A stretch of 64,000 bases of DNA from Spirochaetaceae bacterium. GTDB taxonomy: Bacteria; Spirochaetota; Spirochaetia; DSM-2461. The first letter of the stretch is position 1. Each line of letters starts with the position of its first letter. Made by a program: the position numbers. This document shows, in pieces, positions 24,001-42,000 of the stretch. The stretch spans positions 1 to 64,000 of the forward strand of contig JAOPTT010000022.1 in the NCBI GenBank assembly GCA_051531975.1, in the 5' to 3' direction.

Positions 24001-27000
24001 CTGCCTCAATATAACTTCCAGAAGAAGATAAATTCAGTACTTTAGAAAACTGGATATTAGGAGTATTATCAGCAAATGCTAAAAATGCAATTTTTCCAGT
24101 ATAACTTTTTAATGGACTGTATATTTCTAGTTTTGTTGTTGGTGCATAATGTTTTTCTAGCATTCCTGGTGCATCTGGTTTAGATGAACTATTTACTCTC
24201 TCTGTTACCTCTCCAATTATCTCTTCAATCTGGGATTTAGTTATTTTACCTTTTCTTAAAATAGTTGGTGAATCTACTAATGAAATAATAGTTGATTCTA
24301 ATCCTACGGTACATTCTCCACCTTCAAGTATATAATCTACTCCATCTTTTAATGGCTCCAGATGAGAACTTTGAGTTGGGCTAATATATCCAAATTTATT
24401 TGCACTTGGACCTGCAATAGGCAGTCCAGATTGTTTAAGAAATTCTAATGCTACTGGGTGGTTAGGAATCCTAATACCAACTGTTTCTAAATTTGATGTC
24501 ACAAGATATGGAATATTATCATTTTTAGGAAGTATCATTGTAAGTGGTCCTGGCCAGAACTTAGCCGCAAGTTTTTGTGCAACTTCAGGGAAATCCGATA
24601 CTACCATAGATATTTTATCAATAGAATCTATATGTACAATTAGAGGGTCGTAGGTAGGTCTCTCTTTAACTAAGAAGATATTTTTTACAGCATTTTCATC
24701 AAGAGCATTAGCCCCTAATCCATATACTGTTTCTGTTGGAAAAATAACTAAACCACCATTTTTAATAATATTTCCGGCTTTAGTTATATCACTTCCAATT
24801 TTATCCATTAAAATCCCCTTAAATTGTCTATAGATAATAGTTTAATAGCCAATAATATGTCAATTGAATATGAGCCTAGACTATTGATTAATATCGGTTT
24901 TTTTAAGATATTTATATCTTAAATTATACGTAAGACGTAGGAGTTCAAATTGAGTCCATTAAACAGAAGAATTGGTATCGTAGGTGGTGGTCAATTAGGT
25001 AAAATGATGATTTTAGATGCAAAAAGAATGGGTTACTTTGTAGCTATTTTAGACCCATCTGAGAACTGTCCTGCACACTCTATCTGCGATGTACATATAG
25101 TTAAATCTTTTGACGATACAGAAGCTTACAAAGAGTTAGCATCAATTGTTGATGTAATAACCTACGAGTTTGAACATATAAATTCTAAAATACTTCAGGA
25201 AATTGAGGATGATGGACACCCGGTCTACCCAAGCCCTCACTCCCTAGAAATAATTCAAGATAAGAAGATACAGAAAGAGACATTAATTAAACACGGTATT
25301 AATACCCCTCAGTTTATAGGTGTAGACTCAACCGAAGATATAAAAGAAGCAGGAAAAGAACTAGGTTACCCTTTAATGTTAAAAGCAAGAAAGGGTGGTT
25401 ACGACGGCAAAGGTAACGCCTTAGTTAAAACAGAAAACAACATAGAAGAGTGTTTTACAGCCCTAGGTTCTGGTAATGTTCCTTTAATGGCAGAGAAGTT
25501 CTGTCCCTTCGAAAAAGAGATTTCAGTTTTAGCATGCCGTGATATAGAGGGTAACATCTCAGTTTACCCGGTAGCAGAGAATATCCACGTAGATAGTATT
25601 CTTGATGAAACTTTAGTTCCTGCTGACATATCAGAGAAAAGCAGAAAAAATGCAATGACAATGGCACACTCAGTAATGGAAGTATTCTCCGACGTTGGTA
25701 TGTTTTGTACCGAGATGTTTGTAACAGCAGACGGAGAAGTATCACTAAACGAGGTTGCACCAAGACCCCACAATTCTGGTCATTATACAATAGAGGGCTG
25801 TTATACAAGCCAATACGAAGCTCACATAAAAGCAATTACAGGTTTACCAATCGGCGATGTATCACTAAGAAGTCCTTCAGTTATGAAAAACATCCTAGGG
25901 CAAGGCGAAGAGGGTAAGACAAAGATCTCAGGGATAAAAGAACTACTACAGGATCCTAAAGTAAAATTCCACCTCTACGGCAAAGATAGATCAAAACCTA
26001 AAAGAAAAATGGCACACATAACAGCAATAGGAAACACACTAGAAGAGGCAAGAATAAGCGCCAACAATGCATACAACAAGATACAAATATCAGGAGAGAA
26101 GAAGTGAATAAAATAGCAAAACCACTAGTAGGAATAATAATGGGAAGCGACTCTGACCTCCCAGTAATGAAAGATGCAGCACAAATATTAGACCAATTAC
26201 AGGTTCCATACGAACTAACAGTAGTGTCTGCCCACAGAACCCCTGATAGACTTGTTAACTACGCAAAAACAGCAAGAGAAAGAGGTCTAAAAGTAATAAT
26301 AGGAGGAGCCGGAGGTGCAGCCCATCTACCAGGAATGGTAGCATCAATGACACCTCTACCAGTAATAGGTGTCCCAGTTAAAACCAAAACAATGAGCGGC
26401 CTAGACTCCCTATACTCAATAGTACAAATGCCCCCAGGAATCCCAGTAGCAACAGTAGCCATAAATGGTTCCAAAAACGCAGGTATCCTAGCAGCCTCAA
26501 TAATAGGAGCATCAGATAAAGAAACCCTAGACAATGTTGAACAATACAAAAAAGAACTAGAACAGATGGTACTAGGCAAAGCAAAAAAACTTGAAGAGAT
26601 GAAGTACAAAGAATATTTAGAAAATATGTTATACCCTCAAACATAATAAAATACTAAAAAACCAATCAATTACCAAACTAAAGTCTAATAACACCAATAA
26701 TACTCCAAAATAACCTCAAATATAGCCAAAAATATAACTTTTGCTATATGTACTATCAGTATAAATTATGTATTAATTAAATAGAGTTGAGATCGTTCAG
26801 ATATAAATTCTTTTACAATAATTTAAGGGAACAAAATGATAAATAATTTTATAATACATGAGATACAAAAAGAGCAACACACTGACATTAGTAAGTTTAT
26901 TCCATCAAAAGTTGAGGTTACTAAAGATTATATTGCAGAATCATTAGTAAATGAATTACATAAAGAAATAACAAAATCATCAAAAAAAGTATACGGAATC

Positions 27001-39000: not shown

Positions 39001-42000
39001 ATTCGACAGATGACATAATTATAATAAATTTCAATTATACTGATACTGCTGAACGATATCTAAGGATTATTAAAGATAGAATTGGTTTTTCTAATAAAGA
39101 TAATATTAGATGTATTAATATTCATGGACAAATAAATTCTAGTACTGAAGAACCAATTTTTGGAATTGGTGATGAATATCACTCTGAATATAAAAAAATT
39201 AAAGAGCTTGATGACATTGATGAAATATTGAAGTTCAGTAAATCATTTTGGTATCAAAAAAATAATAACTATCAACAACTGATGAATATATTAGATTCAT
39301 ACAAATCAAAGAAAAGAGGTCACTTAGTCTTTCCACAGTATTGTACTATTGAAATATTTGGACATTCATGTGGATTGTCAGATAGAACCTTATTAAAATA
39401 TATATTTAATAATGAATCTATCAAGTCCATTATGTTATATCACTATCCAGATAAAAAAGGATATACACAAAAGACATATGATATCTGGAGACACTTTGAT
39501 AATGCTCATCAATTTAGAATGAAGTTAAAACCATTTAATGAGTCAGATATTATGCCTCAGATTATATAAAAATTGAATATGATTCTGTATATACTGAGAT
39601 ATTAAAACTATATTAGAATGATCTTTATCGATCATATAACTAAGTTTTGTTACCGATGTGCTATATAGTTCATTATAAATTATCTCAAATACAAACGAAT
39701 TTAACTGTTTTAATATCATACCAATCCAGTATGCCATAGTGTTGTTTTTAAGCATTTTAGCCACTCGCCACTATATCTAGCGTATTTAGACTTAAGTGAC
39801 TTGACTTATGAATATTTAATGAGTAAATTTATAATATAGTACATAAACATAAGGAGGATTAAATATATTAAATGGGCTTTCTAATTAATACTTAGAATAT
39901 ATTACAAATAGAACTATATGAGGTATTAAAAATGTCAAAAGGTGAAGATAGAACAATTTTTCAAAGAAATGATGGTTGTTGGGTAAATCAAAGAAATGGG
40001 AACCAAAAAGCTACTAGTATTCATTCTAATCAAAAAGATGCATATGACGCCGCTAGAACAAACCATCAAAACAAAAAAGGTGGAGAAATCTCAATTAAAA
40101 GAGGAGATAATGGTAGAATAAGAGCAAAACATACCATTAAACCAGCAAATGATCCAAGAAACATTCCAGGCTAGAATATTGGTCATAAAAAACAATGTTA
40201 TAAACAATAGTAAAATAAATTTAAAATATATTTAATAAGGGTATTTTACAAGTGATCAACAAAGATTTTAGACATCATTATGTACCACAATGGCTTATAA
40301 AAAAGTTCTGTAAAGATGATCATATCCCTAAAAATGATGATGATTTTCCAGTTTCTGTTTATGATTGTGATAAATCTAAAAGTTTTAATAATATTCCAAG
40401 AAGAATTCTCTATAAGAAATATCTTAATTCTATTGATCTAAATAATTTAACTAATTTTATCGAATACCTAAAAAACAATGGCGAAGATGTAGAAATATTT
40501 AAATTATTAAATTATACAGCTGAATACGAACACATATGGGAAAGATTTGATAGGATCACTTCAATGATATATAACATCATTGATAATAAAACAAAAATTA
40601 CAATTGATGATAGGGCGAATATAAGTTTCTTCTTCTCAGGTTCTTATTTTAGAACACTTAAAATTTTTAAAAGGGCAAAAGATAAGGTTTCAACTATTAG
40701 AAATTTATTACAAGATAATCTTAGATTTACTGAAAGCGAAATAGATACTTATTTGGGAGTAGATTCTACACTAGATGATGAAAAATATAGTATGTATAAG
40801 TTTCTATTTGAAAATAAAGATACATTTCAATATTTTACAGATTACCTACCAATAGTTCTATACACTAAGAGTGAATTTATTCTTGGTGATAATCCTGTAA
40901 TACTCCTTAATTTTTATCATGATAATATAAATAATAACGGACTTGCGAATGAGGGTACATTTGCTGTAACTCCTATTGATAAGCATAGATCAATTTTAAT
41001 GTTACCAACAAATTACTTAGATATGATATTAAATAATTATGACTTAGCTATAGCTGGAAATATATTATATGATAATTTTACAGGTGAAGAGATTTCAAAT
41101 AGTGATGTAATTAATAAAATTGATTATATAATTAAAAAGTTATTCTCACCAGAAAGTATAGGAATACCACTTGTTCAATATAAATGTAACATAAGAGATG
41201 TAGAATTCTTAAACTATTTACAAATAGCTAATTGTGATCGATTTTTAATTTCCAGTGATAATAAAAAAGAGATGATCAATAATTATTTCACTTCATACCC
41301 TGAATTGATTGACAGAAACAATATTTGTAGTGACTTGTACATCAAAACTGGTAGTGATCAAAAAATTGAAATATTTCAAAAGATTAAAAACAATGAAATA
41401 ATTAATGAAAAATGTGACTTCATGCCACATGTATATAATTTAAACTTAAAATATACAAACTTTTCAAAACTTTATAGAACAATAATATATAAAATCCAAA
41501 AAATAGCACGTGTTAGTATAAATCCTAATCCTCTGCTTAATAAAGAACACTTATATGGGAACAAATTATATATAGAAAAAAAATAATATTTAATCAAAGT
41601 CTAATATTTCAATAGATAATCGAAATATAAAAAAACTGTAATGGAAAATTATTTTAACTAACTCTCTGTAGAAAAAGCAGAGAATTCGGCAACCCAAAGG
41701 GTCATGATTTCTACTTCATCAGGCGTTTAATCACCTAATAGATAGGGGAAAACTATTTAATCTAGTATTATATCAGCTGCTTTTTCAGTTGAGATGTTTT
41801 CATGATTATATATAGATATTAAATTTTTTAGGTTTAGAGTGTTGTTTTCTATCTCATCTTCACATGTTTTACTTCAAATCAGAGATACTTAAAATAGAGA
41901 TTTTTATTAACCTTTTGACATATTATCTACCGTAAATATCCTCTCTGTCTGAAAGGTTTAAAGTTAATTTATCAAGCTGATTTACAAGTGGTAACATTTT

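Follow-up and report, generated by a model that had tools for sequence, protein, structure and literature searches.

Gene content and setting of the purE-hisS insertion

The window, a 64,000-nt stretch of contig C22, carries an insertion of 16.3 kb between the housekeeping genes purE and hisS (Table 1). Two congeners, G001 and G002, are collinear with C22 across the core genes purK and purE up to ~26570, and in both the purE-hisS spacer lacks the island, the two genes being convergent neighbours ~130-240 nt apart. The G+C content of the island is 24.6% (21-27% per kb) versus 31.5% for the genome (5.46 Mb, 98.5% complete), in keeping with the low G+C noted in a first-pass annotation; the cassette array on contig C8 likewise has 24.6%. 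All four attC sites and all nine intact genes of the island are on the plus strand, and g04656 begins only 190 nt after the end of purE.

Table 1. Features of the insertion and its flanks, with the integrase gene of contig C8
Feature	Position	Strand	Evidence and remarks
purK	24950-26107	+	Left flank; Pfam ATP-grasp/PurK_C 1.1e-59
purE	26104-26646	+	Left flank; Pfam AIRC 1.2e-67
Insertion	26647-42940	+	Integrase-less attC array plus right-hand debris
138-nt direct repeat, copy 1	26686-26822	+	Core 26706-26781; ends 13 nt before g04656 start
g04656, NA37/YejK-like nucleoid-associated protein	26836-27855	+	Pfam NA37 9.3e-37, residues 6-322
g04657, 413 aa	27836-29077	+	Alpha/beta plus helical N-domain of ~290 aa, two C-terminal TM helices
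attC1	29089-29204	+	CM 98.6 bits, alignment, fold; R'' ATAAC and R' GTTATAC both intact
g04658, Rad50/SMC-like (LmuB-like) ATPase	29269-31554	+	Walker A GNNGSGKSS, central CPFC hook, Walker B LPLIMDDE
g04659, 349 aa	31529-32578	+	Predicted 2-TM plus coiled coil; alignment A8; conserved partner of g04658
138-nt direct repeat, copy 2	32691-32827	+	Core 32710-32785, 95% identical to copy 1
Relic of attC 3' end and cassette-start junction	32864-32895	+	R' box GATGTTATAT
g04660, TIR + STAND NTPase	33017-35617	+	Pfam TIR_2 3.9e-15, nSTAND_NTPase4 9.3e-12
attC2	35619-35734	+	CM 98.1 bits; R'' ATGAC, R' GTCTTAT (compensated GAC/GTC replacing AAC/GTT)
g04661, 320-aa orphan	35818-36780	+	Lies 13 nt before g04662
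g04662, PD-Lambda-1 (DUF4041 + T5orf172/MUG113)	36793-38136	+	PADLOC 7.5e-115; Pfam
attC3	38134-38250	+	CM 94.7 bits; R'' intact, R' ATTAAAT (G to A at crossover G)
AbiH-family gene	38598-39569	+	Full length, one in-frame TAG at 38787-38789
DUF2188 protein (PADLOC candidate PDC-S16)	39932-40174	+	Pfam 1.1e-13; PADLOC 2e-12
DUF4238 protein	40252-41586	+	Pfam 1.4e-19
attC4	41620-41734	+	CM 77.1 bits; R'' ATAAA (C lost), R' GTTTAAT; most decayed site
Pseudo-hisS	41757-42358	-	Degenerate last ~150 codons of hisS; begins ~25 nt after attC4
Extra ribosomal protein S21 gene	42687-42896	+	Pfam Ribosomal_S21 1.9e-13
hisS, intact	42941-44239	-	Right flank; Pfam 1.3e-45; 88% aa identity to G001 orthologue
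IntI	C8:31744-32685	-	TIGR02249 387.4 bits (cut-off 265)

The attC sites and the integron integrase

The four repeats on C22 are structured elements of ~115 nt each that belong to an attC family shared with the array following the genome's single integron integrase, IntI on C8, the sole TIGR02249 match above the cut-off; C22 has no TIGR02249 match and no intI fragment at E≤0.001. In a genome search, a profile built from the four C22 repeats alone recovered all four at E 4e-22 to 3e-18. Its further matches were on C8, at 34567, 35966, 37200, and 38721 with E-values of 5e-21 to 2e-13 and at 40476 with E 0.011, and at single sites on C3, C5, C25, and C10. Between positions 20000 and 50000, a hairpin covariance model returned exactly four matches (77.1-98.6 bits, all on the plus strand), the next best (E 0.15) being the reverse strand of one of these sites. 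These searches bear out the earlier claim that an integrase-less array of the C8 attC family partitions the island, and the chromosomal integron on C8 is likewise confirmed by the integrase match and the attC array beside it. The annotation's count of at least six attC sites on C8 stands for five solid sites; the sixth, at 43262, is a partial match to the C22-only profile (E 1.3) that the covariance model did not recover, and is therefore considered a remnant. Among 31 related genomes, the attC family occurs in 16 and an IntI above the cut-off also in 16, both counts including the source genome and all three congeners; G001 has an integrase-less array as well.

Across 13 aligned attC sites (consensus R'' TAACAAA, R' CGTTA), paired cells amount to 79.3%, a share that falls to 32.0-42.0% once the partner is slid. 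The hairpin covaries, with compensatory changes on both sides in 21 of its 39 pairs. The observed value was reached by none of 500 shuffles for four of five measures and by 17 of 500 for the fifth. It is extremely improbable that the island is an ordinary defence island whose repeats are REP- or terminator-like palindromes of a generic intergenic kind rather than recombination sites: although the sites follow gene ends and fold into hairpins, and the bottom-strand fold of attC4 is no better than that of shuffled sequence (z -0.3), the same family forms the array adjoining intI in the classical divergent orientation, here and in the congeners, and its R''/R' boxes are of the RYYYAAC/GTTRRRY type. 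Moreover, the covariance model has just 18 matches at E≤1 in 5.46 Mb, and these cluster by typical cassette cargo, the genome's other attC-linked genes being BrnT/BrnA, HigB/HigA, a PIN protein, GNAT, LysE, and DJ-1.

The C22 sites are 49-61% identical to one another but 66-74% identical to the C8 site at 34567 and are therefore not copies of one another. Both triplets of the AAC/GTT core are retained in attC1 only, so the array appears largely fossilised; with the canonical core altered in three of the four sites, present-day mobility is doubtful. The proposal that one attC closes one mobile unit accordingly now holds in full for attC1 alone.

Modules of the array and their putative roles

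The segment g04658-g04660 had been taken as one cassette, with the reservation that it could be two units separated by a decayed attC; the data support the reservation. Positions 32864-32895 match C8:37296-37327, a stretch that takes in the R' box of a C8 attC and the beginning of the cassette after it, at 29 of 32 nt (blastn E 8.7e-5, whole genome); no full attC is detectable there, a point against a fifth site. Because of this R' relic and the independent recurrence of g04658 and g04659 without the TIR-STAND gene, the array probably comprised five cassettes originally rather than four. A 138-nt direct repeat is present before g04656 and again after g04659, and its copy 1 contains a 22-nt motif (ATAGCCAAAAATATAACTTTTG) that also occurs upstream of at least five other genes; this repeat fits no simple integron event and counts against the integron reading of the island.

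Cassette 1 comprises g04656 and g04657. The family profile of g04656 matches PDB YejK 9be2_A at 2.3e-32, and the protein itself scores 114 bits against NCBIfam YejK, under the cut-off of 341. For g04657 (AF2 pLDDT 84), TM helices are predicted over residues 294-324 and 363-393; the N-domain, with a net charge of -5 and a pI of 5.56, is no more than mildly acidic, which tells against the type II PANGU reading below. Formerly listed as unknown, the pair matches in architecture the type II PANGU of an April 2026 preprint (a nucleoid-associated protein with a TM effector), making g04656 a candidate Pag2A-like sensor and g04657 a candidate Pag2B-like effector. By analogy, phage degradation of the chromosome would release the DNA-bound nucleoid protein, which would then activate the membrane effector and bring about abortive infection. 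In a second genus, represented by Alkalispirochaeta alkalica, the pair (42% identity for g04656; 31%, E 4e-50, for g04657) sits between two attC hairpins, one of 65 nt (z -5.45, 0 of 200 shuffles) and one of 129 nt (CM 28.5 bits, E 2e-4; z -3.41). It also recurs in a gammaproteobacterial MAG, adjoining SoFic, FRG/PDC-S15, and RES genes. No attC or attI was found upstream of cassette 1, and its left border is a guess placed at a GTT (26786) that precedes the ATG by 50 nt (49 nt in A. alkalica).

The motifs of g04658 were read from alignment A5. Its model (AF2 pLDDT 81.2) matches Rad50 (7zr1_C, 4.4e-11) and LmuB (9uxh_F, 3.2e-7) in Foldseek, along with SMC folds, and PADLOC gives weak LmuB (5.3e-8) and PtuA (1.1e-6) matches. 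Seven metagenome loci carry relatives of g04658, and in three of them (L030, L031, L036) a g04659 homologue lies directly 3' of the ATPase gene (E 4e-9, 2e-10, and 6e-8, respectively). The pair follows SIR2-HerA in L031 and precedes a PD-(D/E)XK protein and a PDC-M01A/PtuA-like ATPase in L036. None of the seven loci has a g04660 homologue, nor an attC by the family-specific model, leaving cassette status of the pair elsewhere unsupported. From association and architecture, g04658 and g04659 are the island's one new defence candidate, in which an SMC-type DNA sensor may be coupled to a membrane effector, following Lamassu-like logic. It is unlikely, though worth weighing, that the cassette 1 pair and the g04658-g04659 pair are non-immune, serving as an accessory nucleoid protein and as an SMC-like ATPase with a membrane partner for mobile-element DNA maintenance or segregation. 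PADLOC has no match for g04656, g04657, or g04659, the case for defence draws on association and architecture, and SMC/Rad50 folds also occur in repair and segregation; however, both pairs adjoin known defence genes in unrelated contigs, nucleoid-associated protein plus TM-effector operons of like architecture protected E. coli (bioRxiv 10.64898/2026.04.06.716658), and the genes lie in a cassette array of a nearly complete genome, not on a plasmid or phage.

The defence genes known beforehand (TIR-STAND, PD-Lambda-1, AbiH, and DUF4238) were all recovered, and the annotation's values for NA37 in g04656, for LmuB and PtuA in g04658, for PDC-S60 (1.1e-68) and ThsB (1.7e-25) in g04660, and for PD-Lambda-1 in g04662 were reproduced. 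Against NCBIfam DS8_antiphage, g04660 scores 457.8 bits, under the cut-off of 790. The PADLOC alignment of g04662 runs from residue 6 to residue 444 and covers positions 9-476 of the 491-position profile. Its neighbour g04661 has no Pfam, PADLOC, or NCBIfam match, and no homologue of it adjoins any of 20 viral PD-Lambda-1 genes. The AbiH gene, described earlier as a remnant, is instead full length: both sides of the TAG are in the same frame and, once the stop is read as X, the Pfam AbiH profile aligns at 1.6e-25 over positions 1-254 of 260, making it now a nonsense pseudogene broken by a single codon. A lone DUF4238 protein gave strong T7 resistance in work described by Rousset et al. 2022 (PMC9122126).

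Origin of the array

The island is a CALIN, a cluster of attC sites lacking an integrase and an element of a known kind. We consider it likely that this CALIN, whose sites belong to the attC family served by the C8 IntI, originally held five anti-phage modules in the purE-hisS spacer. Each would have been self-contained, its genes running in the direction of the attC top strand: the NA37 pair; g04658 with g04659; TIR-STAND; g04661 with PD-Lambda-1; and AbiH with DUF2188 and DUF4238. IntI would have built or fed the array, which is presumably mostly immobile now, given the decay of three attC cores out of four and the loss of one entire attC.

That the array is instead what is left of a second, once complete integron after loss of its integrase and attI, and arose by neither IntI-mediated secondary-site insertion nor block import, is quite unlikely. 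The tidy co-oriented array and its visible decay (mutated cores, a lost attC) would fit, and intI loss is named among CALIN origins by Cury et al. 2016 (bioRxiv 10.1101/030866); against this, C22 lacks any intI fragment at the threshold given above, the interval from purE to g04656 is too short for a platform, the site is empty in two congeners, and intI pseudogenes lay near only 15 of 279 CALINs in that study.

A tentative alternative, to which we give some weight while doubting it, is that a related strain supplied the island preassembled, in a single block, through homologous or illegitimate recombination (e.g., after transformation), without the local IntI. Right after attC4 comes a decayed 3' fragment of hisS, 83-86% identical in nucleotides to the resident gene; its translation is 74% identical to HisS residues 398-432 and 53% identical to residues 281-330, with two TAA stops. 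The extra S21 gene comes next and shares 51% identity with the genome's other copy (C2:111018-111206). This debris suggests block import or rearrangement rather than cassette-by-cassette insertion. The left end of the island, moreover, repeats sequence found after g04659, and a 2025 paper (PMC12614218) reports natural transformation as a driver of cassette shuffling in integrons of chromosomes. On the other side, no donor was found, and the attC family and G+C match those of the genome's own integron, although a congener donor would match equally. Block import is compatible with the identity proposed for the island and differs on the route of arrival only.

Comparison with known systems

Like the CALINs described by Cury et al. 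2016, the island has two or more attC sites that share a strand, lacks an intI in its vicinity, and carries many unknown cassette genes, with a complete integron elsewhere in the genome. It differs in that its cassettes are multi-gene and of 2.4-3.7 kb, and in its altered attC cores. IntegronFinder clusters attC sites at a threshold of 4 kb (Cury et al. 2016), so its defaults would detach attC1, which lies 6.5 kb from attC2.

Lamassu, composed of the SMC-like ATPase LmuB and the effector LmuA with or without LmuC, shares with g04658 a Rad50/SMC head, coiled coil, and CxxC hook; the LmuB HMM that matches g04658 weakly matches its L031 relative at 1e-12 over nearly the full length, and the g04658 model matches LmuB chains 9uxh_F and 9hqx_f in Foldseek. 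Unlike in Lamassu, the partner of g04658 is a 2-TM protein encoded downstream, which matches neither the LmuA nor the LmuC HMM of PADLOC. Both gene order and effector in Lamassu differ from the order and membrane effector of g04658 and g04659.

Defence cassettes in integrons have been published, and the principle is thus known. Bacteriophage-resistance integron cassettes (BRiCs) are described from mobile integrons and the Vibrio cholerae superintegron (bioRxiv 10.1101/2024.07.02.601719, citing Darracq et al.), where anti-phage systems, including two-gene ones, form attC-bounded cassettes stacked in arrays, as in the island. Homologues with pseudo-attC sites are also described there from small defence islands, in genomes holding a chromosomal integron and CALIN. 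The island differs in being chromosomal and integrase-less, in a spirochaete-related marine lineage, and in its modules (PANGU-like, TIR-STAND, PD-Lambda-1, AbiH, and DUF4238).

Type II PANGU consists of the nucleoid-associated protein Pag2A and the TM effector Pag2B (Li et al., bioRxiv 10.64898/2026.04.06.716658, April 2026). The word "integron" has no occurrence in that preprint, and Spirochaetes are not named in its taxonomy passage. As in cassette 1, a YejK-like NA37 protein is directly followed by an overlapping gene for a soluble N-terminal domain with C-terminal TM segments, and both pairs are found beside known defence genes. Unlike Pag2B, its candidate counterpart g04657 has an only mildly acidic N-domain; unlike type II PANGU as described there, the cassette 1 pair forms, in two genera, a cassette bounded by attC sites.

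Relationship of the C22 repeats to the chromosomal integron

A profile built from the four C22 repeats alone and run over the genome recovered the array beside the genome's sole integron integrase (IntI; TIGR02249 score 387.4 bits, cut-off 265), on contig C8, plus a few single sites. An alignment with nine other sites shows that the C22 repeats have in common the boxes R'' TAACAAA, L'' TTGGAA, L' CTCAA, and R' CGTTA, together with a central CTGCA/TGCAG hairpin and a CCC-N3-GGG side hairpin. DNA folds conform to the imperfect hairpin of attC sites, in which R'' pairs with R' and L'' with L', the spacers stay unpaired, and the centre varies. 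The hairpin was mapped from the best C8 site, with a partner slid by 1-3 columns as the control. Across the 13 sites, 79.3% of cells paired versus 32.0-42.0% when slid, changes on both sides were present in 21 of 39 hairpin pairs, and the observed value was reached by none of 500 shuffles on four of five measures and by 17 of 500 on the fifth. Over the whole genome, a covariance model detected 18 sites (E<=1); with filters off, it detected exactly four in window positions 20000-50000, all on the + strand. These sites come after ORFs and are co-oriented with them, as members of a family that is arrayed beside the integrase. Recovery of the C8 array by the C22-only profile and the hairpin covariation thus bear out the first-pass annotation, which had assigned the C22 repeats to the attC family of the C8 integron. 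Pairwise identity is 49-61% among the C22 sites and 66-74% to one C8 site (C8_34567); judged by sequence, the four are not copies of one another. A candidate attC extension following R', TATAAAAATTTAT, was discounted because it is too common in the genome (166 matches with at most one mismatch, of which 17 are preceded by GTTA[AT]).

The C8 integron has a classical layout, in which intI and a run of five cassettes (1.2-1.8 kb each) are divergent, and after the cassettes comes a longer terminal segment that finishes in an attC remnant; of the "at least six" attC sites previously counted there, five are full sites and the last is this remnant only. Cargo at C8 and at the single sites (BrnT/BrnA, HigB/HigA, a PIN protein, GNAT, LysE, DJ-1, and PEGA proteins) is typical of cassettes. 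Sixteen of 31 related genomes contain the attC family and 16 of 31 an IntI above the cut-off, both counts including this genome and all three congeners.

Other arrays were also observed. In one congener (G001), roughly 30 sites belong to this attC family; one array adjoins intI, and a second lies about 1.9 Mb off, with no integrase nearby and with some sites at a ~400-nt period. A second integrase-less array in the present genome, on C3, has three attC sites and carries BrnT/BrnA, a peptidase C39-like gene, an IS (rve) transposase, and a PF00144 (beta-lactamase family) serine hydrolase, and with a G+C content of 31.1% it differs from the two low-G+C arrays. A weak attC-like match on C10 (40.6 bits, E 5e-5) was absent from the first-pass list.

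Coordinates of features in the window and of related features elsewhere (R', right core box of attC)
Feature	Position	Strand	Remark
Low-G+C patches (24-25%)	8001-10000; 13001-14000		
purK-purE	24950-26646	+	
138-nt direct repeat, first copy	26686-26822		just 5' of g04656
ATAGCCAAAAATATAACTTTTG, first copy	26718-26739		22-nt core motif
attC1	29089-29204	+	
138-nt direct repeat, second copy	32691-32827		just 3' of g04659
ATAGCCAAAAATATAACTTTTG, second copy	32722-32743		22-nt core motif
R' relic	32864-32895		counterpart C8:37296-37327
attC2	35619-35734	+	
attC3	38134-38250	+	
In-frame TAG of AbiH gene	38787-38789		
attC4	41620-41734	+	
Second ribosomal protein S21 gene	42687-42896	+	Pfam 1.9e-13; between pseudo-hisS fragment and hisS
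hisS	42941-44239	-	
1748-aa ORF	45371-50617		adjoins island
ATAGCCAAAAATATAACTTTTG, other copies	C6:624562; C14:154014; C14:157905; C10:276579; C1:52944		same orientation, 60-100 nt upstream of gene starts
Integron integrase	C8:31744-32685	-	
Other S21 copy	C2:111018-111206		
Second integrase-less array	C3:197604-205016 (L022:5605-13014)	-	
Weak attC-like match	C10:271237-271307	-	
attC arrays in G001	C1:1664407-1677422; C1:3589845-3610346		
intI in G001	C1:3612702-3613646		

Decay of the C22 array

The attC core consensus is RYYYAAC / GTTRRRY, and the core triplets are conserved for recombination. AAC (R'') and GTT (R') are both kept in five of five C8 sites, and both are intact in one of the four C22 sites, attC1. 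The core of attC2 is GAC/GTC (a compensated change), that of attC3 is AAC/ATT, with ATT at the crossover triplet, and that of attC4 is AAA/GTT, with loss of the R'' C and a fold no better than that of shuffled sequence. Since only attC1 keeps the core triplets important in attC recombination, we infer that the C22 array is probably largely fixed. No intI was detected on C22 by TIGR02249 match, not even as a fragment, in agreement with the earlier description of the array as integrase-less. With four attC sites and no intI, the array fits the definition of a CALIN, at least two attC sites without intI (Cury et al., 2016, bioRxiv 10.1101/030866). Spacing is 6.5 kb between attC1 and attC2, 2.5 kb between attC2 and attC3, and 3.5 kb between attC3 and attC4; the first interval exceeds the IntegronFinder default of less than 4 kb between attC sites, a software convention rather than a biological boundary.

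Chromosomal context and edges of the island

The window covers positions 1-64000 of contig C22. The interval between purK-purE and hisS spans 16.3 kb at 24.6% G+C, identical to the C8 cassette array and, as noted in the first-pass annotation, low for this genome (5.46 Mb, 29 contigs, 31.5% G+C). Encoded on its + strand are nine intact genes (at least 80 aa each) and one broken gene, and the distance to either contig end is 22-26 kb. Two congeners, G001 and G002 (HisS identities of 88% and 80%), have purE and hisS convergent and separated by only about 130-240 nt, indicating that positions 26647-42940 are an insertion. Low-G+C patches also occur elsewhere in the window, and a 1748-aa ORF adjoins the island.

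A 138-nt direct repeat has one copy at the left edge, just 5' of g04656, and the other just 3' of g04659; the copies share 85% identity, rising to 95% in a 76-nt core. The motif ATAGCCAAAAATATAACTTTTG within this repeat also occurs upstream of at least five other genes, two copies coming after the coding end of a recombinase-like C-terminal HTH; since these copies are co-oriented and upstream of genes, the motif may be a promoter or operator for some regulator. A sigma-70 promoter scan was uninformative (141 sites versus 139.9 expected). To the right of attC4, the final ~150 codons of hisS are present as a decayed copy, followed by the extra S21 gene, which is 51% identical to the copy on C2. 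These edges (138-nt repeat, pseudo-hisS, and S21) fit import as a block, or a rearrangement, at least as well as stepwise insertion of cassettes. IntI-mediated insertion outside att sites has been reported (Loot et al., preprint).

Probably five units rather than four

The first-pass annotation had divided the island into four cassettes, with the caveat that the second, g04658 to g04660, could be two units separated by a decayed attC. That caveat was well placed. Between g04659 and g04660, a 32-nt segment is identical at 29 of 32 positions (E 8.7e-5 over the whole genome) to a C8 segment that takes in an R' box together with the opening bases of the cassette after it. A full attC was detected neither here (32579-33016) nor at the left edge (26647-26835) by nhmmer with the 13-site profile (--max, even at E<=1000) or by the covariance model with filters off, and the claim at this border is accordingly limited to the 32-nt R' junction. 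Relatives of g04658 were found in seven metagenome loci; a g04659 homolog lies directly 3' in three of these (L030, L031, and L036; E values of 4e-9, 2e-10, and 6e-8, respectively), and none encodes a g04660 homolog. The R' relic and the recurrence of the pair without g04660 point to "cassette 2" being two units. With the relic as a border, the island comprises five units of 2.4, 3.7, 2.9, 2.5, and 3.5 kb.

Of the units to the right of the relic, g04660 encodes a TIR-STAND protein (PDC-S60, 1.1e-68). Its NTPase part matches DS8_antiphage (NF053861) at 457.8 bits, under the equivalog cut-off of 790 and over profile positions 301-994 only, and its N-terminus is a TIR domain, unlike DS-8; it is thus a relative of the DS-8 NTPase part and not an equivalog. 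The earlier assignment of g04662 to PD-Lambda-1 is upheld by a full-length PADLOC match (7.5e-115; residues 6-444 on profile positions 9-476 of 491), and Pfam places DUF4041 and T5orf172 domains in this protein. The orphan upstream of it, g04661, had no homolog in 20 viral PD-Lambda-1 loci, no tblastn match among plasmids and phages, and a best ESM Atlas score (0.81) within the range of shuffled sequences. In the last unit, the AbiH gene previously described as a remnant is indeed broken, but by a single in-frame TAG in an otherwise complete gene; read with X at the stop, it matches its family at 1.6e-25. The DUF2188 protein of this unit matches PDC-S16, and a DUF4238 protein on its own has been tested and described as an anti-T7 system (Rousset et al., 2022, PMC9122126).

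An SMC-like ATPase paired with a membrane protein

The six aligned members of the g04658 family share a Walker A motif, an invariant CPFC midway along the helical region, a Walker B motif, and a THDE motif; in g04658, K125 belongs to Walker A, C354/C357 to CPFC, and D659/D660 to Walker B. Foldseek searches with an AF2 model of g04658 (pLDDT 81.2) returned Rad50 (7zr1_C, 4.4e-11), SMC heads, and JetC, with Rad50 ranking ahead of LmuB (9uxh_F, 3.2e-7; 9hqx_f, 1.6e-6). The PADLOC match to LmuB (5.3e-8) covers residues 477-706 only, and that of the L031 relative (1e-12) nearly the whole profile. The partner, g04659, is a coiled-coil protein with two transmembrane (TM) helices, the second strongly conserved, and has no PADLOC or Pfam match.

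The pair directly follows SIR2-HerA in L031 (L031:501-3690; PADLOC 6.5e-140 and 1.9e-162) and is followed in L036 by a PD-(D/E)XK protein and a PDC-M01A/PtuA-like ATPase (5.7e-83); in L030, none of its neighbours is a known defence gene. A 71-72-aa ORF lies 5' of the ATPase gene in both L030 and L031, with no counterpart in the window. The family-specific attC model, which would miss foreign attC families, found no site in the seven metagenome loci, and g04658 was not found in 400 other genomes of the phylum under a stricter filter. We read the pair as a putative DNA sensor of the SMC type that acts with a membrane effector. It is conceivable, if on balance doubtful, that g04658 and g04659 form a new two-gene anti-phage system in which g04658 would sense foreign or damaged DNA and act through the membrane protein g04659, not through a nuclease; this would be a membrane-effector branch of Lamassu logic, which integrons would circulate with PANGU-like modules among marine spirochaete-related bacteria.

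A nucleoid-associated protein and its membrane partner

The first unit pairs g04656, of the NA37/YejK family (Pfam 9.3e-37; YejK in PDB 2.3e-32; under the YejK equivalog cut-off), with g04657, the two genes overlapping by 20 nt. In the latter, an N-terminal region of ~290 aa precedes two TM helices at the C-terminus (294-324 and 363-393). Only 25 remote homologs, most of about 400 aa, were recovered among 1.84 billion representative proteins, and none of the 10 looked up has an E. coli name; a word-seeded search matched only g04657 itself. Foldseek found nothing in PDB at E<=0.001 (best, CorA chains at E 0.15), and a wide VIA-align comparison returned mainly helical bundles over residues 239-410, CorA/Mrs2 among them (Z 9.7-11.5), making a CorA-like layout a weak lead from modelling. 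A predicted complex of two g04656 with g04657(1-290) scored 0.00 against a mark of 0.32, which allows no conclusion either way.

The same pair occurs in Alkalispirochaeta alkalica DSM 8900 (42% and 31% identity), flanked by two attC-type hairpins, one of 65 nt ending in GTTGGC (z -5.45, 0 of 200 shuffles) and one of 129 nt ending in GTTAGGC (covariance model 28.5 bits, E 2e-4; z -3.41). These flanking hairpins indicate an attC-bounded cassette in a second genus. The pair is present as well in a gammaproteobacterial MAG, beside SoFic, FRG/PDC-S15, and RES genes. The layout of overlapping or close genes, with a C-terminal TM domain in the partner, is the same in the A. alkalica locus (L027) and in L028.

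Comparison with known systems

Integron cassettes that encode defence systems, two-gene cassettes among them, have already been described, as have relatives with pseudo-attC sites located in defence islands (bioRxiv 10.1101/2024.07.02.601719), so that the principle, as the first-pass annotation had acknowledged, is known. The additions made here are a PANGU-like cassette in spirochaete-related genomes, a conserved ATPase-plus-TM candidate, and visible fossilisation of an array. The concept of integrons as defence-gene banks, so far drawn from Vibrio and clinical mobile integrons, is extended to an array that is chromosomal and lacks an integrase, in a distant marine lineage with frequent integrons (16 of 31 related genomes have an IntI above the cut-off). 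The decayed cores of this array illustrate cassettes turning into fixed chromosomal genes. Moreover, attC sites delimit the boundaries of two poorly known modules: the PANGU-like pair of a nucleoid-associated protein and a candidate membrane effector, which travels as an integron cassette in two genera, and the SMC-like ATPase with its 2-TM protein, a compact, conserved candidate that could be cloned directly.

The latter pair falls outside Lamassu because it has no LmuA. In Lamassu, the effector LmuA (and LmuC) is encoded alongside, whereas the partner here is a 2-TM protein that neither PADLOC nor Pfam matches. In PANGU, reported in an April 2026 preprint, YejK-like nucleoid proteins quit the degraded nucleoid upon phage infection and activate effectors; type II systems, which protect E. 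coli by abortive infection, combine the nucleoid-associated protein Pag2A with Pag2B, in which an acidic, DNA-mimicking (DMK) domain at the N-terminus is joined to a TM domain at the C-terminus (bioRxiv 10.64898/2026.04.06.716658). The DMK domain of the type II partner is highly acidic, whereas the N-terminal domain of g04657 is only mildly so (net charge -5, pI 5.56; full-length family members, pI 4.7-7.0). Shared with type II PANGU are the YejK-like protein (g04656), the bicistronic operon with genes less than 40 bp apart, and the C-terminal TM domain of the partner, and by this comparison the first unit appears to have type II PANGU architecture.
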